The notes: a model not told the origin generated them from the letters alone. A stretch of 64,000 bases of DNA from an uncultured Planctomycetia bacterium (GCA_964420965.1 CAYQUQ010000001.1:31544-95543), one strand, 5' to 3'. Positions 11,174-26,540 are shown, counted from the first letter of the stretch. Program-made: numbers and translations.

Positions 11174-13514
11174 GTTAATAGCCGGACTGGTTGTTTTGTT
11201 TTCTTTTGGCGTGACAGAAGCCTCCGGCAGCAACCCTTCCGCAGAATCTCTAAGTTCATTCACTGCGCGTTACCACGATTTGACCCTCCGGCTTGAAGAA
11301 GCCGTCGCGGCCGATCCCGATAACCTCGATTTAAGAATAAAGCTGTCCGGATTTTACTGTGATTTCCGGGATTATGAAAAGGCGATCGCCATCCTTAAAA
11401 ATATTGACTCCCGGGAAGCCAAAGTGGTACTGGCTAAGGCTTATGCTAAGCTTAAAGAGCATGATTATGCCATCGAAATCTTTGAGCAGCTTAAACCCCT
11501 TCCCGAGGATCCCGAATATCTTTATCTTTACGGCACGGTTTTAGAGGAGAAGAATTTATTCCCTAAGGCCATCAAAATTTACGCCCGGGTCGGCCCTCCG
11601 TTCGAGCTTAAAGCTAAAGAAAGAGTAAAAAGTATCCGGTTTAAGGTGGAGAAGGAAATTCCCGAAGCGATAGCAAAGATTTCCCGGAAAGCAAAAAGTT
11701 TTCTCAAAAGTATTAAAGATGACGCCGCGGTCTACCTGCTCGTTGACGAAGATATGGAAGTCCGGACCGACAACACCTCTTTGTCTACAGTGCATATTAT
11801 CGAGAAAGTTTTGAAGGAAAGGGGAAAAGAGCTGGCGGAGGTGGAGATTGGCTATGACTCTACTTATCAGCGGATAGAGCTGGAATTCGCCCGTACCATT
11901 ACCAAAGACGGTAAAGTAATTTATGCCGGGAAAGAAAACATTCGGGATATCGGCCGTTATCTTAATTATCCCCTCTACAGTAACTCCCGGGCCTTTATAG
12001 TTTCCATGCCTTCCGTGGATGTCGGTTCTTTCATCGAGTATAAAATAAAAATTTATTCCTCAAAACTGATCAATGAGGACGATTTCACTTTTATTTACCG
12101 CTTGCGGGAAAAATACCCGATATTCCGGGCTGCTTTTCGCCTGATCGTTCCCAAGAAAAGAAAGGTTAATTTTAAATTCTTCAATCCCGATTACGCTAAG
12201 GGTATAAAGCTTAAGCCTTCGGCGAAGATAAAGGGGGATAAACGGATATATTCCTGGAGTTTTAAGAAAATAGACCCGATAGTTCCTGAGTACGCCATGC
12301 CGCCCGTCTCCTTCGTTAACCCGGCAGTGTTGGTTTCCAGTTTTTCGACCTGGGAAGAGATTTATAAGTGGTGGCATTCTCTGTACCGGGATAAAATCGA
12401 GGCTACCGCAGAAATAAAAAGCTTTACCCAAAAACTTATCGCCGGTAAATCCAGCGAACGGGATAAAGCCAAAGCCATCCATGAATTCGTCGCCAAGAAT
12501 ATCCGCTATGTGGCCATCGAATACGGGGACAGCGGCTACGAGCCCCATCGGGCCGAAGAGGTATTCATCAACCGCTACGGCGATTGCAAGGACCAGGCGA
12601 TCTTACTGGTAAGCATGCTGCGGGCGGCCGGATTAAAAGCCTATCCGGTGCTCATCCCGACCCGTAAAGCCTATCCGATCGCCGAAGATTTTCCTTCTTC
12701 TAATTTTAACCACGCTATCTGCGCCGTGGAACTGGGAAAAGAGCTGATTTTCATGGATCCGACTGCCGAAGCCACTCCTTTTGCCCAGATTCCCCTTTCC
12801 GATCAGAAAAGGAAGGTGTTGGTATTTTTTGACGAAACCTACAAAATACTTACCGTCCCTCAGATAAAGGAAAATACAGTGCGCTACGTCATGGATATCG
12901 ACATCAACAGGGACGAGAATGCTACGGTTACAAGAAAGGTATATACACAAGGATTCTTTGCTTCCTCTTACCGCTGGTATTTAAAATATACCCATCCGGC
13001 TATAATCGAAGAGGACATCCGTAAAAAAATGGTCGCGCTTTCCTCGCTTTCCCGCCTTTTAGATTACGTAATAAAGGATGTCGATGATTTTGATTCTCCG
13101 CCTTCACTGGTTTATAAATTCAAGGCCGATAAATTTCTTAATCCGGCCGGTGAATTAAGAATTATCCCGGCTTTAGACGAGGTCTCTTTAAATCATGAGA
13201 TAATCAGTAAGGAGAAAAGAGATTTCCCCGTCGATTTTGAAGGGTTTTACACCAAGCAGGCGGTCATAAAGATCAATCTTCCCGGAAACTTAAAAGTTAA
13301 ATATTTACCGGACGACTTAGGTTTAGAAAATCCCTGGTTTAAGCTTTCTGCATCCTACCAGAAGCTGCCCGGGGCCATTGATTTCCGCCAGGAGCTGACG
13401 GTTAAGAAGAAATTGGTAGCCCAAAAAAATTATCCGGAATTTAAGCGTTATTTCGAGGATGCGCTTTACCGCTTAAAAGAGCAGATTATTTTAAAGAGAA
13501 ACAAACCCCGTTAG
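11151..13514 (+). CDS. Secreted TPR plus DUF3857-like plus transglutaminase-like cysteine-protease-fold protein
   Basis: Signal peptide; N-terminal TPR helices; transglutaminase core YGDCKDQAILLVSMLRAAGLKAYPVLI ... NHAICAVELGKELIFMDPT; 787 aa. Confidence 0.8.
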   Translation: MSSKLSLKLIAGLVVLFSFGVTEASGSNPSAESLSSFTARYHDLTLRLEEAVAADPDNLDLRIKLSGFYCDFRDYEKAIAILKNIDSREAKVVLAKAYAKLKEHDYAIEIFEQLKPLPEDPEYLYLYGTVLEEKNLFPKAIKIYARVGPPFELKAKERVKSIRFKVEKEIPEAIAKISRKAKSFLKSIKDDAAVYLLVDEDMEVRTDNTSLSTVHIIEKVLKERGKELAEVEIGYDSTYQRIELEFARTITKDGKVIYAGKENIRDIGRYLNYPLYSNSRAFIVSMPSVDVGSFIEYKIKIYSSKLINEDDFTFIYRLREKYPIFRAAFRLIVPKKRKVNFKFFNPDYAKGIKLKPSAKIKGDKRIYSWSFKKIDPIVPEYAMPPVSFVNPAVLVSSFSTWEEIYKWWHSLYRDKIEATAEIKSFTQKLIAGKSSERDKAKAIHEFVAKNIRYVAIEYGDSGYEPHRAEEVFINRYGDCKDQAILLVSMLRAAGLKAYPVLIPTRKAYPIAEDFPSSNFNHAICAVELGKELIFMDPTAEATPFAQIPLSDQKRKVLVFFDETYKILTVPQIKENTVRYVMDIDINRDENATVTRKVYTQGFFASSYRWYLKYTHPAIIEEDIRKKMVALSSLSRLLDYVIKDVDDFDSPPSLVYKFKADKFLNPAGELRIIPALDEVSLNHEIISKEKRDFPVDFEGFYTKQAVIKINLPGNLKVKYLPDDLGLENPWFKLSASYQKLPGAIDFRQELTVKKKLVAQKNYPEFKRYFEDALYRLKEQIILKRNKPR

Positions 13515-15099: not shown

Positions 15100-15240
15100 C
15101 TCACCTAACACAAAAATCAGCCCCGTTGTAGCTTACAGTTGCCTTCGGTAACTTATCTCTAACGGGGTAAACGGCCTGAGCCCAAGTAATGGAAGGGTCA
15201 GGTGCTTGCCCCGTTAGACCGAAGGTCTAATGGGGGATTG
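15100..15240 (-). promoter_or_regulatory. Structured leader / composite repeat region upstream of the small membrane ORF: degenerate CCCCGTTAGA-family hairpins with UUCG/GAAG tetraloops plus boxes shared with the P2 leader
   Basis: Coding-strand ccccattagacc-ttcg-ggtctaacgggg; gttacc-gaag-gcaac; boxes CACCTGACCCTTCC and GATTTTTGTGTTAGGTGA. Confidence 0.55.
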
Positions 15241-17098: not shown

Positions 17099-17608
17099 AT
17101 GAGTATTTTAGAGGTAATAAAGGCGCGCAGGTCAGTACGGAAGTTTAAGCAGAAGGCCGTTCCTTTGAAGGTTATCGAGGGCATTTTAGAGGCCGGCCGG
17201 TGGGCCCCTTCCGGGCTGAATAACCAGCCCTGGCGGTTTATGGTGTTGGGGAAAGAAAAGAAAGATTCCTTAGCCCAATTTACCCATTATGGCCGTATCG
17301 TAAAGGGAGCAGATAAAGTTATTCTGGTATTTTTGGACAAGAAGGCTTCCTATAATTATGAAAAAGATTTAATGGCAATAGGAGCGTGCATTCAAAACAT
17401 GCTCCTTTATATCCACTCTATAAAATTAGGTGCCTGCTGGCTGGGCGAGATCCTAAACCAACGGGAGAAGGTGCAGGGCTTTTTAAAGATATCGAAAATC
17501 CTGGAGTTAGAGGCTGTCATCGCTTTAGGCTATCCCGCAGCCGGCATTAAGAAGGGACGGCGAAAACAGCCAAAAGATTTATCGATGGCAAAATATGAAA
17601 GTATGTAA
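17099..17608 (+). CDS. Nitroreductase family protein
   Basis: IKARRSVRKF....P......ILEAGRWAPSGLNNQPWRFMV. Confidence 0.85.
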   Translation: MSILEVIKARRSVRKFKQKAVPLKVIEGILEAGRWAPSGLNNQPWRFMVLGKEKKDSLAQFTHYGRIVKGADKVILVFLDKKASYNYEKDLMAIGACIQNMLLYIHSIKLGACWLGEILNQREKVQGFLKISKILELEAVIALGYPAAGIKKGRRKQPKDLSMAKYESM

Positions 17609-18740
17609 ACATTTCTCTGAGTGCGGTGGTTGCCGCCTCCAGGATACTCCCTACCCGGAACAACTGGCCGGCAAAGAAGATAAAATAAGAACTCTCCTTG
17701 GTTCTTTAGGTCTTTGCGCAGAGTTAAAACCCATCAATTATTCCGACCAGTGGTATTACCGCAATAAGATGGAGTTTAGCTTCGGCCGGGATGAAAGGGT
17801 TATTTGCGGTTTGTACAGTAAAAACCGGAAAGGGGAGCTTGTCGATTTAGAGGAGTGCCTGATTTTCTCACCCGTCGCGGCCCCGATTCTAAGAGCAGTT
17901 AAAGATTTCGCCCGGCGCAATGAATACCCGGTTTATAATCGCTACTCTCACCAGGGCTTTTTACGCAATGTAATTGTCCGGGAGGCTAAATTTACCCAGC
18001 AGCTCATGGTGGGAATGGTAACTACCAGCAGCCGGGAGTTTAAAGCTGAAGAGTTTGTGGAGGAATTAAGAAGTTTAAAACTAAATTCAGAAGTTAAATC
18101 TATTTACCGGATTATCAATGACTCCTGGTCAGACGCCGTGGTTTTTCAGAGAAAGGAGTTACTTTGGGGAGAGCCGCTGATAGAGGAACAGCTGGGTGAT
18201 TTTAAATTTAAAATCGGTATGGATACTTTTTTTCAGGTTAACCCCGGCATGATCGCTGGCTTCTATGATAAGCTTGCCGGCTATGCTAACCTGTCCGGCC
18301 AGGAAAGGGTTTTAGACCTTTTTTGCGGAGCCGGGTCCATCGGAATCTGGTTGGCCCGAAAAGCTAAGTTTGTCTGGGGGGTGGAAGCCAGCAAAGAGGT
18401 TGTGGATTTAGCCTGGCAAAACGCCAAGATTAATCATATCGAAAATATTTCCTTTTTTAGCGCGGATGCCCGGCGGTTTCTTAATACCCAGGGGGCCTTT
18501 TATCGCGATATCGACCTTTTGGTTATCAATCCTCCCCGCTCGGGGCTCTCCAAGCGGATAATCCGGTCCATCTTAAGGCTTTCTCCCCGGACGATTATTT
18601 ACTCTTCCTGTAACCCCACCGCCTTAGCTCAGGATTTAGGCCAGCTCATTACCGGCTATAACCTCGATTCTATTGAACCCTTTGACTTCTTCCCCCACAC
18701 TCCGCACTTAGAGGTTCTTTGCCTTTTGCGCCGCAAGTAA
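17595..18740 (+). CDS. 23S rRNA (uracil-C5)-methyltransferase, RlmD/RumA family (Fe-S plus class I SAM methyltransferase)
   Basis: N-terminal Cys cluster CKHFSECGGCRLQ; SAM fold LDLFCGAGSIG; C-terminal SSCNP motif. Confidence 0.85.
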   Translation: MKVCKHFSECGGCRLQDTPYPEQLAGKEDKIRTLLGSLGLCAELKPINYSDQWYYRNKMEFSFGRDERVICGLYSKNRKGELVDLEECLIFSPVAAPILRAVKDFARRNEYPVYNRYSHQGFLRNVIVREAKFTQQLMVGMVTTSSREFKAEEFVEELRSLKLNSEVKSIYRIINDSWSDAVVFQRKELLWGEPLIEEQLGDFKFKIGMDTFFQVNPGMIAGFYDKLAGYANLSGQERVLDLFCGAGSIGIWLARKAKFVWGVEASKEVVDLAWQNAKINHIENISFFSADARRFLNTQGAFYRDIDLLVINPPRSGLSKRIIRSILRLSPRTIIYSSCNPTALAQDLGQLITGYNLDSIEPFDFFPHTPHLEVLCLLRRK

Positions 18741-18830
18741 GCGGTTACAAAAAAGCGGTGATTTTGGCCTCAAAGAGAAGATTTTTAGGTATATAAAATG
18801 GTATATTAGAACGGTTACCTGAATTAAGAT
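18741..18830 (+). promoter_or_regulatory. Promoter-region segment A, copy 1 (extended -10 TGGTATATT at 18799-18807)
   Basis: gcggttacaaaaaagcggtgatttt...aaaatggtatattagaacggttacct is duplicated at 19078-19172. Confidence 0.6.
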
Positions 18831-18904
18831 TACCTTGTTTTCTTAAGAGCTTTTCGGGAGAGGCGATAAAAATATTCCTGTTTTTCCAGAATCAGTGATA
18901 GTAA

Positions 18905-19070
18905 ATACTTAGTCTTCATCACAGCCGACACGGAAGAGCGCCGCCGGGGAGGGTGTCGGCAGACCATTCCCTACAGGTAACCAAAACACCGGCGGCATTG
19001 ACTTTATCCCCGGTAGCCTCAGTTTACAGGTTACCGGGGATCTTCAAAATCGAACCCCGGAACGAACTCT
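18905..19070 (+). pseudogene. Decayed fragment homologous to the 3' end of the giant ORF (25990-26160), lying between two copies of a duplicated promoter segment
   Basis: cagccgacacggaagagcgccgccggggagggtgtcggcagaccattccctacaggtaaccaaaacaccggcggcattgactttatcc versus cagccgacacggaggggcaacaacgccgccggggagggtgtcggcagaccattcctcaaaggtaaccaaacacccggcggcattgattttaacc. Confidence 0.7.
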
Positions 19071-19077
19071 GCTTGTA

Positions 19078-19172
19078 AGCGCTTACAAAAAACCCTTGAT
19101 TTTAAAGGGAAATACGAGATTTTCCCTTATCCAAAATGTTATACTCAAGAGGTTACCTCTTTTTTTGAGCGC
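19078..19172 (+). promoter_or_regulatory. Promoter-region segment A, copy 2 (extended -10 TGTTATACT at 19137-19145), about 50 bp upstream of the giant ORF
   Basis: gcgcttacaaaaaacccttgatttt...aaaatgttatactcaagaggttacct. Confidence 0.6.
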
Positions 19173-19219
19173 TTTTTGGTTACCTATAGTTTGTAAAACT
19201 TAATTTCGGGAGACGAAGA

Positions 19220-22200
19220 ATGCTGTCATTTTTTCAGAGGCAGAAGGCCACTGTCTCTCTCCGCTTATTAGGTGCATTACTCATTTTCTTTCTGTTTATC
19301 TCTCTAGCCGCTACCTACTTACCTAAGAGATCACCGAAGTATGCTGATTTTCTTCCTCCCCCCGGCAAACTAGTAGCTTTAACCCCCGCCTTTATCCCGC
19401 CGCTTTTACGCGGCCTGACCATCTATCCCCAGGATCCTTTTCGCTTCGACTTCTATATCGAAAACGGCGACAAACACCTTAAAGATGAACAGTTTAAACA
19501 AGAATCCCGGCAGCTGATCAAGTACTTTTTAGCGGCCTTAACCATACCCGAGGAAGACTTCTGGGTCAACCTCTCCCCTTACGAACAAGAAAGAATCGCT
19601 CCTGAGGACTTAGGCGTAACCGAGCTGGGAAAAGCCCTCTTAGGCCAGGACTATATCTTAAAACAACTCCTGGCTTCCCTGATGCACCCGGACAGTGAGA
19701 CCGGAAAAGAGTTCTGGAAGCGGGTCTATAGACGCGCCCATGAGCTCTACGGCACGACCAAAATACCCATTAACACCTTCAACAAGATTTGGATTATGCC
19801 GGAGAAGGCCTTAGTTTACGCCCGGGACAATACCGCTTATGTGGTGGAAAGCCGCCTCAAAGTTTTACTGGAAGAAGACTACCTGGCCTTAAAGCAAAAT
19901 CTTAACCACCCGGCTCCCGGTTCGGAAAAGCTCTCGCCGGATAAGACCAAGGTTTTATGCCGGATATCTTCTAATCTGATCAAGGAAGTCATCCTGCCGG
20001 AAATCGAAACAGAAATCAACCAGGGAGAAAACTTCGCCTCTTTGAGGCAGGCCTTTAACGCCATGGTCTTAGCCGCCTGGTTTAAACGCCGCCTTAAAAC
20101 TCACCTCCTCAATCAGGTCTATACCGATAAAGCCAAACTCAAAGGTGTCGATCTTAAAGATAAAGCCACCAAACAAAAAATCTACCAGCAATACTTAGAG
20201 GCCTACCGGCAAGGCGTATACAACTACATCAAGACTGAATATGACCCCAATATGCAGAAAAACATTTCCCGCCAGTACTACAGCGGCGGCTTTGCCTGGG
20301 GAAAGCCCGGGGAATGGTTGGGTGAGACCGGCCAGGCCCCCTTATCCCGCCGGGAAGGAGCCAATGTCCAGGTGGCTTTGCGGGCGGAAATGGGGCAGAC
20401 AAGGAGAGTTTCCTCGCCCAGTGAGAGTAGTGGAGATGAGCTTAAGGTTCTCTATAACGCGGCTTTAGCCGGTGATAGTTCCGCGGTAAACCAGTTAAAG
20501 GCATTTGCTCTCTCTTCCGACCACGCCCTAGCCCAAAGCGCCTACGAATACCTGGATCACCTGGCCTACAAAGAAAGCAACTTAGAGAGCATCCAGGCCG
20601 TAAAGGAGCTGGCCCTTTCTGCGGATATACCCCGGGAAGCCAAACTTAATTCCAATAGCCAGGGTATCATCGATGACTTAGCTTATATCGTCCGGGAAGC
20701 CCAGCACCATATCAGCAGCGAAGCCCGCAAGGCGGCTTTAGACGCTTTAGAGGAAATCATGTTTGCTTATGCTAAGAGCGATACCAAGATAGCCGATTAT
20801 ATCTTAAACCGCATATTCACCCCCTTAAGGAATGGCTACATAAACACTATCCCCGACGGAGCCGAGCTGGCCACCCAGGCCTTAAAAAGAATGGTGGAGT
20901 CTGACCAGATCGGTTCAGGCTTAACTGCCCAGGCTTTAACGGCTAAACCGGAACAACCCTTAGCCGTATTTAATACCGTAACTGACCCGGCGGCCCAAGG
21001 ATATACCCCTGGGCATAAAAAGACAGCCTTGGAAAACTTAAACCTGGCCCAGGCCGCCCAGGTAATCCCCCGGATAAAGGAGCTGGTCTTCTCCCAGGAC
21101 CACGCCCTAGCCCAAAGCGCCTACGAATACCTGGATCACCTGGCCTACAAAGAAAGCAACTTAGACAGCATCCAGGCCGTGAAGGAGCTGGCCCTGTCTG
21201 CGGATATACCCCGGAAGGCTAAACTTGACTCCAATAACCAGGGCATTATCGATGACTTAGCTTATATCGTCCGGGAAATACAACTGAACGTCAGCAGAGA
21301 AGCCCGCAAGGCGGCCCTGGCGGCTTTAGAAGAGATCCTGTTTGCCTACGCTAACGATACCAACATAGCCGATTACATCTTGAACCGCGTATTCATCGCC
21401 CTAAGGGAACAGGTGATAAGCGCTATCCCCGACGGAGCCGAGCTGGCCACCCAGGCTTTAAAAAGAATGGTGGAGTCTGACCAGATCGGCCCAGGTTTAA
21501 CGGCCCGGGCCTTAACGGCTAAACCGGAACAACCCTTAGCCGTATTTAATACCGTAACTGACCCGGCGGCCCAAGGATATACCCCTGGGCATAAAAAGAC
21601 AGCCTTGGAAAACTTAAACCTGGCCCAGGCCGCCCAGGTAATCCCCCGGATAAAGGAGCTGGTCTTCTCCCAGGACCACGCCCTAGCCCAAAGCGCCTAC
21701 GAATACCTGGATCACCTGGCCTACAAAGAAAGCAACTTAGACAGCATCCAGGCCGTGAAGGAGCTGGCCCTGTCTGCGGATATACCCCGGAAGGCTAAAC
21801 TTGACTCCAATAACCAGGGCATCATCGATGACTTAGCTTATATCGTCCGGGAAACCCAGCACCATATCAGCAGCGAAGCCCGCAAAGCGGCCCTGGCGGC
21901 TTTAGGAGAGATTGCTGCCGCTGATTTTGCCGACGATGCTATCATCAGATACTTACAGAATGATAACGGCGTTAAAGCAATAATCCGCAGTACCTCACTA
22001 CCAGCTATCCCCCAAGATTTATGGGAGTTGCTACAAACAGCTAATCAGGATGCTCCTTCCAACAAGCAGATAAATTTAGAATCATTTATGGCTGACTACT
22101 GGCTTACCGTGGCCCGGCTTTACCACCTGGATCCACGCTATTGCCGCCAGATATTTGACGCTATCCTTTCCGGCCTGGGGCCAAAGCGGCTAGCGGCATT

Positions 22201-25200
22201 CTTAAAGGATATACAACCGGCCCTTTGGGATGAAACCATTTACCCAGCATTAAAGTCAATATTTAAACAGGCCCAAGAGCGGGATCATGCTTATGCCCAG
22301 AGAATTATCGAGTTAGCTGCCGCCTATAAGGATTTAGGGATCAGCCAGTTATTTGTGCAGCTGGCCGCGCAGGAAGCCCAAAAACGCCGGGTTACGGTCC
22401 GGCAGGTATATTTAGCTCTAGCCCAGGAGTTAATCAAAGCCTTTGCCCAGAAACTGGGAGTTACCCTGGACCGGGTGACTGCCGAGACCATTGAAAATTG
22501 GTATTTGCCTTATTTATCCAAGCTGTTTGTGGGCCGGCGCATTGTCTATGCTCACGGCAGCAGCCACCGGCCCCTGCAGCAGCTATTCGATTCAGTGATC
22601 AAGGCCACCCTGGAAGGTAAATTCGCTGAGATGATCACTGATACCAGTGATGCCAACGCTTATCCCATGGGTAAAAGAATTGCTGAGCAGAATCAGAAGG
22701 TGAGAAAAGCCTTAGAGTTATTAGGCATTGACTTAGAAGAGTGGTTAGGCTATCAAGAGGAAGCCCGGTTTAGCTTAGAGCAGGCCCAGGGCAGCCGGAT
22801 TGATGTGGCCGCAGAATTACAGGGCTTGGCCGAGCAGTTTTTCGCTCTTCTCGATAAGCTGCAGGAAAAGCACGGGAATATGGTCAGGGGTAGTTTAGGT
22901 AAGATGGGCTTAGAATTAGTGGAAGATGCTCAAGGCAGGCGTCTGGTTCAGAATAATGGTCGGCAGGAAACCAATCAGAAAGTGGCCCTTAAAGCCTTGA
23001 TGGGTTTATTATTTAAAAACCAGGGTAACTTCAGCAAACTCCAGAAAAGCTTGAATTTCCTGGATAGAAATTATCAGGGCCAGGAAGCGGCTACCTTAAT
23101 CTTCCACATCCGGGAAAAACTAGAGATGCTTAACCGCCTGGTCAATAATCCCGCAGAATTTAAAAAAGCCCTGGAAGGCCCGCAGGCATTTTTAATCCGC
23201 AGGTGGGCCCGAAATCCCGGCCGGGATATCTTCCAGGGTAACTTTACCGGATGCTGTGTGGCTATCGATAACGACTTACACCCGGAGGCCATTATCGAAT
23301 ACCTCATTGACCAGGGGATTCAGATTGTGGAGGTTGTTGATGAGGCTACCGGCTTAGCCGTAGCCCAGACATGGGTTTTTGTAGCCGTTAATCAAAACGG
23401 CAAGCCGGTTTTAGTTTTAGACAATATTGAAGTCGAGGAAACTTACCCTAAAACTTCCGGTCAGAATAAAATAATCCGTGATCACCTGGTAGCCTACATG
23501 CAGAAATATGCGCAGGCTATCGACGTCGAGGAGCTTTATTTAGGGGTAACCCAGTACAACGATGTGAACACCAGTGATTACCCCACTGTTTCTGATCAGT
23601 TGGTCAAGCCCGGGGGTTACCTCTGGGATTTTGAAGGCGCAAACTATACCTACTATTTAGAGTCCATGTACGGCGAAACCGTTCAGCAGAGTTCGCACCG
23701 CGCCGACGGAAGTATCCCTTCTACGGCCCGGCAGTTCCACCGCCTTCCTTTGCCTAAGCTTCCGCCTAAACCGGTGGATAATAGCCGGATCGGCGTCGAC
23801 CGCGTTCTACCCGATCAGGCCGAGGGGATTTTAGATCAACTGGTCCAGGTAGAGGCCGGGGCTTATTCTAATCCGGAATTAAGGCTGGGAAGAGAATTTT
23901 TACGCCACTCCGTAAATAATCCCCAGGGGGTCAATATGGTATTGCGCTACAAGGGAAGAATAATCGGCTACGCCCTCTCTGTTCCGGCTGAGGACGAGGA
24001 GGCTGCTCCCCAGATTCCCCACAGCCTTTACCTTGAGGATTTTGCTATTCTGCCCGAGTTCCGCAATAATCCGGCGGCCAATCTTAAGTTTATCCGGGGA
24101 TTTCTCCGGGAGGTAACCAACGGTACCTATCAGACCGTAACCCTGCATACTCATGGTGGGATTGTCAAATTTCTGGTGGATGATTTTGGCTTTGCCATAG
24201 TCGGTAAAGAAGATAATTGGCTTGATTCGGGAGAGACCTTTTATTTATTGCGCTGGGATAAGGCTTCTTCTTCGGTCTCCTCACCATCGTCTTCTCCCCG
24301 CAGAGAGGAGCTAGAGAGGTTACGCGATGCCCTGATGAATGCCGCGGAGAGATTAAAATCGAATCTCGTCCTACACCATAAGGAAGTAGAAGATTTTCAT
24401 AGCACAGTCAGTATATATAATGGACAAGAAATGACCACCGGAGAAATGCTGGATGAACTCAGAAGAGGTATGTATAGGATTAAAACCCGCGAAGAATTAA
24501 TGGATGAGTTGCACCTCTGGATGGATTGGCATATTGAGCATGCATTACATGTAGATAGTGTTGTTTCCCACGCTGCTTCCCGCAGCTCCAAACAAGTGGT
24601 AAGAGAATTGCTGATCAGAGAGTTCGATCTTAAGACTTTAATGTTGATCGATATAGAATATTTAGAGGGGGAAGGAAAAGGCTTTGCCCGGGGCGGATAC
24701 GGAATAGGTAAACACGAGAAATTAGACGAACCGAGACAAAAACAAGTAGCCCAGTGGTATAATCGCCATTTATATGAAGGATTCGAAGTCTTACAGACGG
24801 TTTTAGAAGAGCGGGAACTTCCCTGGGAAGTTGATTTTCAGGAGTATGAACAGTCATTTAAATTTTGGTTTCCTGACAATATTTCTCGGCCTATTGCCCG
24901 CGAGCGGCAGAGAGGGCAGACTTACGAAGATAGCGTGAATGCCAGTCTTGCGGAGGTTAATGCAGCCATTAAGGAGGTTAATGAGGAGTTACGCCAGTAT
25001 GCTGATCCCGATGAAAGTTCATCGTCCCCCAACGCCTCGTCCTCATCCCAGCCGGACGGTACAGGAAAAGATATTACCAGAAGAAGATTTTTGAAGCGTC
25101 TGACCGCGACTGCAACTGTAGCGACGGTAGCGCCTAATGATATCATTCTACCGGGATCCACGTTACCGTCTCCGGCATCTCCAGTCAGAATAAGTTATGC

Positions 25201-26281
25201 TCTTCTGCGCGATATGCTATCAGGAATAGGTGCTGTTCAAATGCCTACTACAGGGAGTCGGGGTAATTTAATTGTATTTGATGATTTTCCTTTTTGGTGG
25301 CATCTGCGGAGAGTATTGCCAGAGGGGCAGAAAGATGAAGCAGAAAAAATTGCAGAAAAATTACTGAGAGCGGCTGTGTTAGAGGCCAGACAGAGGCTGA
25401 GGACAGCAGGGATTATAGAGACAGGAGAGGCCGCAGAACAAGTTATTGGAGATATCGAGAGGGCATTCGATGATTCAGCCCATGAGGTTCGTAGAACGAT
25501 AGAGAAAGGAGGTTATTCAGAAGACCTGGTATACGATGCTATTAAAAAAGCACAAAAAGCAATAGCGCAACAGCAGGATAAAAAAGAGGATGGCCTTGAG
25601 CAACCAGAACCGGAGATCATGTACACCGACTCCGGCTTTCCGGACTTTGATATTACCCAGATGCAGGATATAGAGCTTATTGGACGAATTGAGGTAATCG
25701 AAGCTGACCTGTTCAGGCAGCTGCAGCTAAGGAGTGCTTCTGACCGGGATATCCGCACACTCGCCGGCCGTATCTATCTGGCCCAGCGGGCAGCAGAGGG
25801 AAGGGCTATGGCTGAAGTAACTGATCTTAGTCCGATTGGTAATATCACCCAAGATGATCTAGAGTCAATCGGCGGCCGCGTGTTAGGTCTGATGGGGATG
25901 AGCGGGGTAGGCGAAAGTCCGCCTGAAGGTCAACCCAAGCAGGCAGGACTTACCGTCTTATCAACGACAGATTCGTCTTCTCCCAACGCTTCGTCCTCAT
26001 CCCAGCCGACACGGAGGGGCAACAACGCCGCCGGGGAGGGTGTCGGCAGACCATTCCTCAAAGGTAACCAAACACCCGGCGGCATTGATTTTAACCCTGA
26101 TAACCTGGATTTACAGGTTATCGGGGATAATAGCAGGGAGCGGTCTCGACCGTTCCCTGCTGAATCTCAGCTTCCTTTCGATACCCATAATTTCCAAGGC
26201 TTTACCTTCCAGATTCTCAAAATCGAGCCGGTTACAGACCCAGTCCATATTACCAAAGGACCCCAGCTTTCTCGCCGCTAA
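19220..26281 (+). CDS. Giant modular membrane-anchored protein (2,353 aa) with internal 192-aa tandem repeats and Ser/Pro-rich linkers; function unknown
   Basis: Uninterrupted 7,062-bp ORF; N-terminal TM helix LLGALLIFFLFISLAA; repeat array 20515-21915; possible GNAT-like segment at about 23900-24260; internal Tat-like motif TRRRFLKRL; duplicated linker SSSPNASSSSQP. Confidence 0.8.
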   Translation: MLSFFQRQKATVSLRLLGALLIFFLFISLAATYLPKRSPKYADFLPPPGKLVALTPAFIPPLLRGLTIYPQDPFRFDFYIENGDKHLKDEQFKQESRQLIKYFLAALTIPEEDFWVNLSPYEQERIAPEDLGVTELGKALLGQDYILKQLLASLMHPDSETGKEFWKRVYRRAHELYGTTKIPINTFNKIWIMPEKALVYARDNTAYVVESRLKVLLEEDYLALKQNLNHPAPGSEKLSPDKTKVLCRISSNLIKEVILPEIETEINQGENFASLRQAFNAMVLAAWFKRRLKTHLLNQVYTDKAKLKGVDLKDKATKQKIYQQYLEAYRQGVYNYIKTEYDPNMQKNISRQYYSGGFAWGKPGEWLGETGQAPLSRREGANVQVALRAEMGQTRRVSSPSESSGDELKVLYNAALAGDSSAVNQLKAFALSSDHALAQSAYEYLDHLAYKESNLESIQAVKELALSADIPREAKLNSNSQGIIDDLAYIVREAQHHISSEARKAALDALEEIMFAYAKSDTKIADYILNRIFTPLRNGYINTIPDGAELATQALKRMVESDQIGSGLTAQALTAKPEQPLAVFNTVTDPAAQGYTPGHKKTALENLNLAQAAQVIPRIKELVFSQDHALAQSAYEYLDHLAYKESNLDSIQAVKELALSADIPRKAKLDSNNQGIIDDLAYIVREIQLNVSREARKAALAALEEILFAYANDTNIADYILNRVFIALREQVISAIPDGAELATQALKRMVESDQIGPGLTARALTAKPEQPLAVFNTVTDPAAQGYTPGHKKTALENLNLAQAAQVIPRIKELVFSQDHALAQSAYEYLDHLAYKESNLDSIQAVKELALSADIPRKAKLDSNNQGIIDDLAYIVRETQHHISSEARKAALAALGEIAAADFADDAIIRYLQNDNGVKAIIRSTSLPAIPQDLWELLQTANQDAPSNKQINLESFMADYWLTVARLYHLDPRYCRQIFDAILSGLGPKRLAAFLKDIQPALWDETIYPALKSIFKQAQERDHAYAQRIIELAAAYKDLGISQLFVQLAAQEAQKRRVTVRQVYLALAQELIKAFAQKLGVTLDRVTAETIENWYLPYLSKLFVGRRIVYAHGSSHRPLQQLFDSVIKATLEGKFAEMITDTSDANAYPMGKRIAEQNQKVRKALELLGIDLEEWLGYQEEARFSLEQAQGSRIDVAAELQGLAEQFFALLDKLQEKHGNMVRGSLGKMGLELVEDAQGRRLVQNNGRQETNQKVALKALMGLLFKNQGNFSKLQKSLNFLDRNYQGQEAATLIFHIREKLEMLNRLVNNPAEFKKALEGPQAFLIRRWARNPGRDIFQGNFTGCCVAIDNDLHPEAIIEYLIDQGIQIVEVVDEATGLAVAQTWVFVAVNQNGKPVLVLDNIEVEETYPKTSGQNKIIRDHLVAYMQKYAQAIDVEELYLGVTQYNDVNTSDYPTVSDQLVKPGGYLWDFEGANYTYYLESMYGETVQQSSHRADGSIPSTARQFHRLPLPKLPPKPVDNSRIGVDRVLPDQAEGILDQLVQVEAGAYSNPELRLGREFLRHSVNNPQGVNMVLRYKGRIIGYALSVPAEDEEAAPQIPHSLYLEDFAILPEFRNNPAANLKFIRGFLREVTNGTYQTVTLHTHGGIVKFLVDDFGFAIVGKEDNWLDSGETFYLLRWDKASSSVSSPSSSPRREELERLRDALMNAAERLKSNLVLHHKEVEDFHSTVSIYNGQEMTTGEMLDELRRGMYRIKTREELMDELHLWMDWHIEHALHVDSVVSHAASRSSKQVVRELLIREFDLKTLMLIDIEYLEGEGKGFARGGYGIGKHEKLDEPRQKQVAQWYNRHLYEGFEVLQTVLEERELPWEVDFQEYEQSFKFWFPDNISRPIARERQRGQTYEDSVNASLAEVNAAIKEVNEELRQYADPDESSSSPNASSSSQPDGTGKDITRRRFLKRLTATATVATVAPNDIILPGSTLPSPASPVRISYALLRDMLSGIGAVQMPTTGSRGNLIVFDDFPFWWHLRRVLPEGQKDEAEKIAEKLLRAAVLEARQRLRTAGIIETGEAAEQVIGDIERAFDDSAHEVRRTIEKGGYSEDLVYDAIKKAQKAIAQQQDKKEDGLEQPEPEIMYTDSGFPDFDITQMQDIELIGRIEVIEADLFRQLQLRSASDRDIRTLAGRIYLAQRAAEGRAMAEVTDLSPIGNITQDDLESIGGRVLGLMGMSGVGESPPEGQPKQAGLTVLSTTDSSSPNASSSSQPTRRGNNAAGEGVGRPFLKGNQTPGGIDFNPDNLDLQVIGDNSRERSRPFPAESQLPFDTHNFQGFTFQILKIEPVTDPVHITKGPQLSRR
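20515..21915 (+). repeat. About 2.4 tandem copies of a 576-579-bp coding repeat inside the giant ORF (copy 1 20515-21093, copy 2 21094-21669, partial copy 3 21670-about 21915)
   Basis: Identical string ccacgccctagcccaaagcgcctacgaatacctggatcacctggcctacaaagaaagcaacttag at 20521, 21100 and 21676; the copy ends share more than 150 bp of exact identity. Confidence 0.9.
26132..26161. repeat. Near-palindromic 30-mer related to the korA palindrome, inside the giant ORF 3' region
   Basis: agcagggagcggtctcgaccgttccctgct (2 mismatches from a perfect palindrome). Confidence 0.8.
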
Positions 26282-26285
26282 AGTT

Positions 26286-26445
26286 CCATAAAGCAGCATT
26301 TTCTCACTAAGACACGATTTTGCCTTGCCTACGGCAGGCACACAAAAAATGGCTAAAAATCGGCTCCCAGCCTCCGGGCTCGCCGATTTTCTTAACGCCA
26401 TTTTTTGCTAAAATCGTGAAATGTTCGAAAATACTGCTTTATTCC
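26286..26445. repeat. About 160-bp nested imperfect palindrome downstream of the giant ORF (inner hairpin 26343-26407); terminator or MITE-like
   Basis: Outer arms ccataaagcagcattttc...cacgattttgcc pair with gctaaaatcgtg...gaaaatactgctttattcc; inner arms caaaaaatggctaaaaatcggc pair with gccgattttcttaacgccattttttg. Confidence 0.7.
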
Positions 26446-26483: not shown

Positions 26484-26511
26484 TTGACTAAAACTTGAAA
26501 GATAGTAAAAT
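26484..26511 (+). promoter_or_regulatory. Sigma-70-type promoter candidate for the acyl-CoA ligase gene (TTGACT-N16-TAAAAT)
   Basis: ttgactaaaacttgaaagatagtaaaat lies about 30 bp upstream of the ATG at 26541. Confidence 0.5.
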
Positions 26512-26540
26512 TTTACTAATCAAATTTTACTAGTTTTCCG

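Follow-up and report, generated by a model that had tools for sequence, protein, structure and literature searches.

A probable duplication and deletion scar upstream of a giant open reading frame of the Omnitrophota long-protein family

The window, as the whole stretch of DNA analysed here is called (64,000 nucleotides; CAYQUQ010000001.1:31544-95543 of GCA_964420965.1), carries a giant open reading frame (ORF) of the Omnitrophota long-protein family. It is preceded by the gene for an RlmD/TrmA-type RNA methyltransferase (MT), and a spacer of 479 bp (18741-19219) extends from the MT stop to the ATG of the giant ORF. This spacer is very probably the internally deleted wreck of an upstream copy of the whole giant-gene unit; for the first promoter (P1) and its leader, a role is only inferred. 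The scar itself is an ordinary footprint of duplication and deletion, of a known kind.

An earlier note on this DNA had described a promoter segment that occurs twice with a 3' remnant of the gene between the copies. This feature is real, as alignments, shuffled sequences and seven contigs confirm. The order promoter, 3' remnant, promoter, gene stands as the note gave it, with the addition that copy 1 also keeps a dead 5' end. Features of the spacer and its flanks, including the ribosome-binding sites (RBS) and boxes in the 5' untranslated region (5'-UTR), are the following.

17595-18740, plus strand: MT gene (PF05958, E 3.6e-24; orthologues in 53 species)
18735-18750, no strand: degenerate operator-like palindrome of P1, AAGTAAGCGGTTACAA, which differs from the perfect copy at P2 by 3 mismatches
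18737-18820, plus strand: promoter element copy 1 (P1), with palindrome, extended -10 TGGTATATT (18799-18807) and GGTTACCT box 1 (18813-18820)
18828-18835, plus strand: degenerate second box of copy 1, GATTACCT, from sequence and multi-species alignment
18855-18901, plus strand: dead 5' end of copy 1, with RBS CGGGAGAGG (18855-18863), former start ATA (18872-18874), codons FLFFQNQ, then TGA TAG
18908-19041, plus strand: 3' remnant part A, homologous to ORF 25989-26128, with in-frame TAG at 18910-18912 and two codons missing
18971-18986, plus strand: remnant GGTAACC box CTACAGGTAACCAAAA, 15/16 complementary to P2 box 2
19006-19041, plus strand: remnant hairpin, 14-bp stem, 8-nt loop, -25.2 kcal/mol
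19039-19056, plus strand: 3' remnant part B, homologous to ORF 26212-26229 (codons ILKIEP)
19057-19072, plus strand: junction tail of uncertain origin (old spacer between MT and promoter, or extreme 3' end of the gene; too short to assign)
19073-19088, no strand: operator-like palindrome of P2, perfect over 16 bp, TTGTAAGCGCTTACAA, located some 50 nt upstream of the P2 -10, with symmetric changes in relatives
19075-19158, plus strand: promoter element copy 2 (P2), with extended -10 TGTTATACT (19137-19145) and GGTTACCT box 1 (19151-19158)
19174-19189, plus strand: P2 box 2 TTTTGGTTACCTATAG, whose complements are the remnant box and, for 11 nt, the ORF 3' box
19220-26281, plus strand: intact giant ORF, 2353 aa, with RBS GGGAGA at 19208-19213
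25989-26229, plus strand: ORF segment homologous to the remnant by sequence alignment

Evidence for a Lost Gene Copy

Part A of the remnant aligns with the ORF over 140 columns at 81.4% identity (E 2.3e-34), in sequence that is not low-complexity, and a repeat search returns it as blocks of 108 nt and 32 nt with 84% identity. The score of part B was reached in 11 of 2000 shuffles. The two parts are separated by an 86-nt deletion with the microhomology GAT on both sides. Together, 149 nt match 241 nt of the ORF, with gaps of 6 nt and 86 nt. The earlier note had given roughly 165 bp against the last 240 bp or so; the homology holds, and the size is corrected here. Its translation of the remnant was accurate, and tblastn gives 69% over 48 aa (E 6e-14). 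Chance or low-complexity similarity was rejected on the strength of the remnant match (E 2e-34) and the shuffle tests.

The earlier note had called the remnant non-coding, and this is confirmed. It contains an in-frame TAG, and the 86-nt deletion, not being a multiple of three, shifts the frame. Differences from the ORF number 3, 11 and 8 at codon positions 1, 2 and 3, so that most fall on positions 1 and 2, and they make 13 nonsynonymous versus 6 synonymous codons. Two residues that are invariant in the family have been lost, with I replacing N of NP and S replacing D of LDL. The stop, the frameshift, the codon-position pattern and the lost residues show that the fragment is non-coding. The spacer's only small ORF, of 41 aa from a GTG, was rejected as a gene: it runs mostly out of frame with the homology, and the homologous frame has no start.

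The 5' edge of the remnant falls in a linker, SSSPNASSSSQP, that occurs twice in the giant ORF (25018-25054 and 25972-26008; 37 nt, 89% identical). The two linker copies enclose a segment of about 306 residues that begins with a motif resembling a twin-arginine signal (TIGR01409, residues 1952-1986). To judge from the sequence, this segment looks like a module inserted at a repeated linker.

The upstream part of the unit is also present twice. Positions 18737-18820 and 19075-19158 align over 84 nt without gaps at 70% identity (blastn E 5e-5 within the window), with a score that none of 2000 shuffles reached. Two copies had been described, each of 95 bp; strict alignment reduces this length to 84 nt, while similarity at the level of motifs runs on to the start codon. 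As previously stated, both copies have an extended -10 (TGgTATATT and TGtTATACT) followed by GGTTACCT.

What such a unit should contain can be seen from a multi-species alignment of the two window copies with the upstream regions of L019, L021, L061, L062, L073, L074 and L075 (related loci and strain contigs are given here by L numbers). In the layout common to the orthologues, a palindrome, TTGwAAGCGCTTwCAA, is followed after about 50 nt by an extended -10 (ATGnTAyAyT). A GGTTACC box stands 5-6 nt after the -10, usually with a second box 8-28 nt further downstream. Then come the RBS, CGGG(G)AGA, and the start codon. Because the palindrome is conserved with symmetric changes in relatives (its counterpart in L021 is GAAAACGTTTTC), it is likely to be the operator of a transcription factor. 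The MT stop TAA (18738-18740) lies inside the P1 palindrome; relatives instead have 10-37 nt between the MT stop and the palindrome.

Copy 1 can be followed into the gene itself. Its ATA sits in the alignment column where all other sequences have ATG, and the codons FLFFQNQ are comparable to MLSFFQRQ in the window ORF, MFLFIKKR in L019 and MILFLEKK in L061. Since copy 1 retains an RBS, a mutated start and seven 5' codons, it can be described as an internally deleted pseudogene. Homology to the intact neighbour is thus colinear and extends beyond low complexity at the promoter, the 5' end and the 3' end, and coding capacity has been lost with relaxed constraint on codons, as expected of a pseudogene left by tandem duplication. 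The likeness to known fragments of this kind includes a partial colinear copy beside an intact paralogue, a duplicated promoter, disabling mutations, deletions at microhomology and no coding constraint.

The scar is present in 7/7 independent metagenome contigs of the organism that were examined (JGI and ENA samples), at 99-100% identity. As these contigs come from different samples, an assembly artefact was rejected. The locus shows no similarity to plasmids. Rfam 15 gives no match at the gathering score anywhere in the window, and two regions give sub-threshold chance matches only. A terminator-like hairpin at 19147-19161, whose stem has 6 bp, is weak and is not relied on.

Origin and Age of the Scar

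In the proposed history, the locus once held two tandem units, each with an operator palindrome, an extended -10, GGTTACC boxes, an RBS and a gene. The pair would have arisen either by tandem duplication in place or by insertion of a homologous unit. The upstream gene would then have lost everything between codon 9 and the last 97 or so codons. Further losses would have removed 86 nt and two codons, the ATG would have become ATA, and stop codons would have been gained. The outcome would be the present order of P1, dead 5' end, 3' fragment, junction and intact unit (P2 and gene), with the fragment untranslated. A former tandem pair with the first gene almost entirely deleted was one of two readings offered by the earlier note; the analysis supports this reading and extends it, given that copy 1 keeps its promoter, RBS, start position and seven codons.

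The age of the event can be judged from the 3' end. Identity between the remnant and the ORF 3' end is 82%, whereas the same stretch shows 41-68% between species. They are each other's closest relatives, and the event is therefore specific to the window lineage.

The promoters tell less about age. P1 and P2 are 70% identical, and promoters of different species are 58-77% identical (84-93% inside the L061/L062/L075 group). Of 47 promoter columns conserved in the outgroups, P1 matches 41 and P2 matches 39. The two copies agree with each other in 39/47 conserved columns versus 21/38 others (Fisher p 0.008). Because they are no more alike than promoters of separate species, the repeat mostly reflects conserved regulatory motifs.

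This leaves room for another source of the second unit. A promoter and gene from a different Omnitrophota lineage might have been inserted beside the resident unit, after which the resident copy decayed. Several observations agree with such an acquisition besides the level of promoter identity. P2 has AACCCTT..TTTTAAAGG in common with L061, L062 and L075, and P1 has GATTTTGGCC.CAAA in common with L073 and L074. The protein cargo of the window and of L061 is non-homologous although the flanks are syntenic, and close relatives differ in whether they have the family gene at all (L064 and L078 are without it). Against this, the 3' fragment resembles the resident ORF (82%) far more than the sequence of any other species (41-68%), the common promoter motifs are short and could be explained by chance or by retained ancestral states, and the locus has no integrase or mobile-element gene. 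Acquisition is accordingly considered rather unlikely. Whether the unit was duplicated in place or acquired, a tandem stage followed by deletions is required.

Several points weigh against the proposed history. The promoter repeat alone is no proof of recent duplication, and a homologous unit may possibly have been acquired. Taken alone, the pairwise match of the 5'-UTR and start region is weak (90/2000 shuffles); the case for the 5' end of copy 1 rests on the multi-species alignment, where comparison with five orthologous loci brings it out. Two intact tandem genes, which the earlier note had suggested looking for, were found in no relative among 53 MT loci, a protein search and nine locus contexts. 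The tandem stage is inferred and was not observed, because the collections searched hold no relative above 69% MT identity, the value for the closest orthologue in the MT protein search. In favour of an event specific to the window lineage, a covariance model of the fragment region, run against 61 sources, found only genuine 3' ends and the window remnant, and no related locus with a family gene has a second promoter copy together with a 3' fragment. The unduplicated state, with a single promoter and no remnant, is seen in L061, L075, L062, L019, L021 and L073.

Conserved Signals at the Ends of the Gene

Comparison of orthologues shows that two stretches of the 3' coding module are conserved as nucleic acid.

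26061-26071, plus strand: ORF 3' box AGGTAACCAAA (codons K-G-N-Q), complementary to 5'-UTR box 2 and nucleotide-conserved in orthologues
26095-26126, plus strand: coding-region hairpin with a 13-bp stem and the loop GATTTA, with compensatory changes among orthologues

The hairpin lies in the codons N-P-x-x-L / D-L / (Q or E)-V-x-G-G of the C-terminal module. It has equivalents in L061 (18911-18942), L021 (15140-15171) and others, and is lacking in more distant family members. Its arms are as follows.

Window ORF: 5' CCCTGATAACCTG, 3' CAGGTTATCGGGG
L021: 5' CTCTGCGAACCTC, 3' GAGGTTCGCAGAG
L061: 5' CCGCGAATCTC, 3' GAGGTTCGCGG
Remnant: 5' CCCCGGTAGCCT, 3' AGGTTACCGGGG

The sequence of the stem varies by species while its complementarity stays, and the compensatory changes alter amino acids (D/I, G/T and A/R pairs). 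In a set of ten rows, which represent only about six lineages, 82% of cells are paired, a value reached in 0/500 shuffles, and 6/13 stem pairs show double-sided changes. The covariation score is 0.391, versus 0.205 in shuffles (0/500) and 0.11-0.14 in controls slid along the alignment. Pairs are thus kept by compensatory changes across orthologues, as expected of a structured RNA. The eight closest sequences contain 11 G.U pairs and 2 A.C, and this excess of G.U points to a structure in the single-stranded sense transcript and not to a double-stranded protein-binding site. A loxP-like reading of the palindrome, as 13+6+13, was dropped in view of the covariation of its arms between species and the excess of G.U over A.C.

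The other element lies about 25 nt upstream of the hairpin. Here the K-G-N-Q codons are nucleotide-conserved as AAAGGTAACCAA, which is the reverse complement of the 5'-UTR box. The 5'-UTR boxes of the window (19151-19158 and 19178-19185) are about 7 kb from their 3' counterpart at 26061-26071, and across loci the complementarity extends over 9-13 nt. In the window, box 2 TTTGGTTACCT and AGGTAACCAAA are complementary over 11 nt. The L061 5' box (11249-11260) matches its own 3' module over 12 nt, and that of L062 does so over 13 nt. In L021, ATGGTTACCTTCT and AGAAGGTAACCAT (11206-11218 and 15107-15119) are complementary over 13 nt, and their flanks are unlike those of other species yet match each other. 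When boxes were paired with their own and with other species' partners, L021 alone showed a clear preference for its own. The complementarity can therefore be called conserved, whereas support for covariation is thin.

Judged from sequence, this complementarity has three possible readings: the RNA ends pair, the boxes form an inverted repeat that serves recombination, or a protein-binding site is present twice. The motif is also over-represented beyond the giant-gene locus, as GGTNACC occurs 27 times in the whole window versus 9 expected. Most of these are GGTWACC, and 5 of the 27 lie in the 479-bp spacer. GGTTACCT has 10 occurrences in the window against 1.3 expected.

If the RNA ends do pair, the orthologues might carry a form of 5'-3' communication in the mRNA, between a GGUUACC box in the 5'-UTR and a GGUAACC box with the covarying hairpin in the last 200 nt or so of the coding region. 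In the window lineage, the 3' fragment of the dead duplicate would have been co-opted in the leader as a partner in cis for transcripts from the upstream promoter. The GGUUACC box could also pair with the Shine-Dalgarno sequence, and such pairing would couple translation or stability to completion of the transcript. This whole scheme is regarded as unlikely. Folding of the P2 5'-UTR alone, and of the UTRs of L061 and L021, gave no significant structure (z -0.6 to +0.7).

A precedent for pairing between mRNA ends is the hok/sok system, in which the 5' and 3' ends of hok mRNA pair through the fbi/tac fold-back element. End pairing of this type would couple translation or stability to the full-length transcript. 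The giant-gene locus resembles hok in that an element near the 3' end of the mRNA is complementary to a 5' element near the translation start. It differs in that some 7 kb separate the partners, that one of them is part of the coding region, and that RNA pairing is only one of three readings here.

A Possible Leader Role of the Remnant

One feature sets this scar apart from ordinary pseudogene fragments. The remnant coincides with the two conserved nucleic-acid elements and keeps them better than simulated neutral decay would, and P1 retains 41/47 conserved columns. Exactly the hairpin and the GGTAACC box are contained in the surviving 3' fragment.

The complementarity of the remnant box to P2 box 2 beats the 11 nt of the ORF's own box, and random mutation of the ORF version equals it in 0.1-0.5% of trials. 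The remnant hairpin, at -25.2 kcal/mol, is slightly more stable than the ORF hairpin (-23.7 kcal/mol). Simulated copies are as stable in 0.07% of cases with 8 random substitutions and in 0.6% with 4. The RNA predicted from the P1 box to the start codon has a folding energy of -130 kcal/mol (z -4.2), and pairing of the remnant box with box 2 is part of the minimum-free-energy fold.

P1 may thus still be active, which would make two tandem promoters 338 nt apart. Transcripts from P1 would carry a structured leader of about 400 nt, in which the GGUAACC box of the fragment would pair with box 2 of the P2 5'-UTR and the fragment hairpin would be retained. Because the remnant preserves both elements better than neutral simulations and P1 keeps its conserved positions, co-option of the remnant as part of a long leader is possible but unproven; it is held to be a real chance, although the balance lies against it.

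Some observations argue against a leader role. The statistical tests were devised after the pattern had been seen. In strain L002, a change of A to T at 19033 breaks the remnant stem, and this is the only single-nucleotide polymorphism outside the internal repeats in the contig's first aligned segment (window 17595-21336). Also, the structure-preserving changes may have occurred in the ORF copy, which is under selection. The remnant hairpin keeps an unpaired C.C where the ORF has restored G-C.

Alternative Explanations

The inverted repeats in the spacer suggest a model in which P2 is an invertible switch. Inversion between 18971-18986 and 19174-19189 would flip a 219-bp segment with P2 and so switch the giant gene, and the 3'-module box could even allow the whole gene to invert. 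Like fimS-type invertible promoters, the locus has inverted repeats (15/16 nt) that bracket a promoter segment of about 200 bp for the gene of a predicted membrane-anchored protein, and their complementarity is better than the neutral expectation. Orthologues keep the inverted repeat of 9-13 nt that the 5'-UTR box forms with the 3' module, and in L021 its flanks differ and still match. Repeats flanking a promoter segment are therefore present, but neither both orientations nor a cognate recombinase was found in the assembled contigs. All seven strain contigs have the same orientation, and no recombinase was found among 27 window ORFs scanned with Pfam or in the precomputed gene calls within 10 kb on either side. 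Unlike in fimS, one of the repeats is left over from the 3' end of the gene itself. A clear preference for the own box partner is seen in a single lineage, and inversion leaves the retained hairpin unexplained, for which the bias of G.U over A.C (11 vs 2) suggests a single-stranded sense structure. A promoter switch is for these reasons very unlikely.

The second reading of the earlier note, a recombination cassette for the C-terminal domain, fares still worse. A silent donor that varies this domain by gene conversion would be a non-expressed partial copy of the 3' end, near the expressed gene and in direct orientation, as the remnant is, and an identical run of about 33 nt could support recombination. 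Cassettes of the pilS or vls type have several donors and an expressed copy that varies between strains. Here there is only one copy, and it is degenerate: it contains a stop, its frame is shifted, and invariant residues have been replaced. Between the window and L001 (the only contig covering it), the expressed 3' module shows no difference, and within the family the C-terminal module is what stays conserved rather than what varies. With neither a recombinase nor a reverse transcriptase among the scanned ORFs, a cassette appears highly improbable. Diversity-generating retroelements, of which the Omnitrophota are a phylum with many, likewise have a non-coding repeat that matches the 3' end of a large target gene, as a pair of template and variable repeats. 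The remnant has about 135 nt that are some 82% identical to the 3' end of the gene. In a retroelement pair, mismatches should be specific to adenine, whereas a hand tally finds A at about 7/22 mismatches in the remnant and about 6/22 in the ORF. Indels separate the two sequences, and a reverse transcriptase was found neither among the 27 window ORFs compared with Pfam nor in the precomputed calls within 10 kb. The mismatch spectrum refutes this model, which was rejected as almost certainly wrong.

The Gene Family and Its Locus

The spacer is thus best read as the deleted upstream copy, and the family of the giant ORF provides the context for it. Among the candidates scored, 1611 proteins belong to this family at E <= 0.001. 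They have a conserved N-terminal module of about 350 residues and a C-terminal module with GGIDxNP..L.L; the sub-type of the window ORF ends in ..PFD..F.GFTF.I..I.P. Searches of the giant ORF with Pfam and NCBIfam gave only a sub-threshold match to DUF7934 and an internal match resembling a twin-arginine signal. With the C-terminal-module alignment as query, a metagenome scan yielded 8 loci and a protein search one irrelevant match. The window belongs to a Candidatus Omnitrophota genome: homologues of the giant ORF and orthologues of MT are annotated nearly all as Omnitrophota. The locus was also found in JGI and ENA metagenome contigs.

The common gene order among the 53 species with an MT orthologue runs nitroreductase, MT, AMP-binding enzyme (acyl-CoA ligase-like) and phosphorylase, with the AMP-binding gene directly after MT. 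At the loci below, a family gene lies between MT and the next gene; its lengths are given.

Window: 2353 aa
L061: about 2590 aa from the ATG at 11290 (gene caller: 2541)
L075: at least 5886 aa
L062: 1479 aa
L019: 1276 aa
L021: 1348 aa
L073: 2688 aa
L074: 1910 aa
L076: 1890 aa

L064 and L078 have no family gene, despite a similar MT identity to the window. Between the window ORF (19220-26281) and that of the nearest relative, L061 (11290-19064; MT 69%), only the first 340 or so residues (62%) and the last 58 or so (53%) align. The middle of the protein, some 1900 residues, is unrelated, though the flanks are syntenic. By this comparison, the cargo between the conserved protein ends is replaced between the window and L061.

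Rearrangements have occurred at this site more than once, in line with the proposed history of the scar. A duplication with a different outcome is found in L074 (8572-9051) and L076 (around 2047-2527). Here the duplicated 5' end (box, UTR and about 25 codons) now lies within a conserved ORF, about 160 aa long, that separates the promoter from the main gene. The first 25 or so residues of this ORF copy the N-terminus of the family (MLLFSKTRKAHVMFKLIAGCIMLSF) and are followed by an unrelated domain; a second GGTTACC box stands downstream. A partial 5' duplication has apparently been turned into a gene in these two loci. Two species carry an inserted AAA_14/DUF4143 ATPase gene after MT and ahead of the family gene, on the minus strand in both (L019, 1299-2474; L062, 11143-12270). 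The L019 insertion has a copy of some 60 nt from the 3' end of MT on either side (1236-1295 and 2512-2570), like a target duplication.

Within the giant ORF, three tandem repeats of about 579 bp (193 aa each, 84-97% identical) occupy 20491-21930, and strain L002 has one unit fewer. The 16 differences that distinguish L001 from the window all fall within these repeats, at 21598-21703, as would be expected of conversion between repeat units or of repeat assembly.

Downstream of the giant ORF, the first 30 or so nt after the stop are conserved with L061. The 3' flank has a 16-nt inverted repeat (26288-26303 and 26427-26442; 94% complementary, 123 nt apart) that encloses a GC-rich hairpin at 26355-26392. 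Before the AMP-binding gene, at 26484-26538, a TTGACT hexamer is followed by two palindromes like TAGTAAAATTTTACTA. This arrangement is kept in L064 and L078, both without the family gene, and is probably the AMP-binding gene's own promoter and operator.

Implications

The giant ORF belongs with the very long, membrane-anchored proteins of Omnitrophota that combine repeats and enzyme domains (PMC10066038; bioRxiv 10.1101/2023.11.21.568195; bioRxiv 10.64898/2026.06.07.730766). Its 2353 aa fall below the thresholds for "giant" used there. The three papers, searched by term, yielded no description of the N- and C-terminal modules, of a conserved promoter or regulatory layout, or of duplication scars of this kind.

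The scar is a dated snapshot of the turnover of long-protein genes in Omnitrophota. At one syntenic site, from MT to the acyl-CoA-ligase-like gene, some species have no family gene, and in others it encodes 1,276 to more than 5,800 residues. The cargo is non-homologous even between nearest relatives, and the promoter, the N-terminal module and the C-terminal module are constant. Together with the 5' duplication in L074 and L076 and the differences in copy number of the internal repeats, the scar points to recombination within conserved ends as what drives this turnover.

Comparison of the orthologues also revealed the regulatory layout, with its 16-bp palindrome, extended -10, GGTTACC boxes, complementary box in the 3' module and covarying coding hairpin. 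The locus is a hot spot of cargo turnover with a conserved regulatory layout, in which a relic has perhaps been kept for its RNA or DNA signals. If the complementarity of the 5' and 3' boxes acts as RNA, it would be a way of handling very long transcripts.

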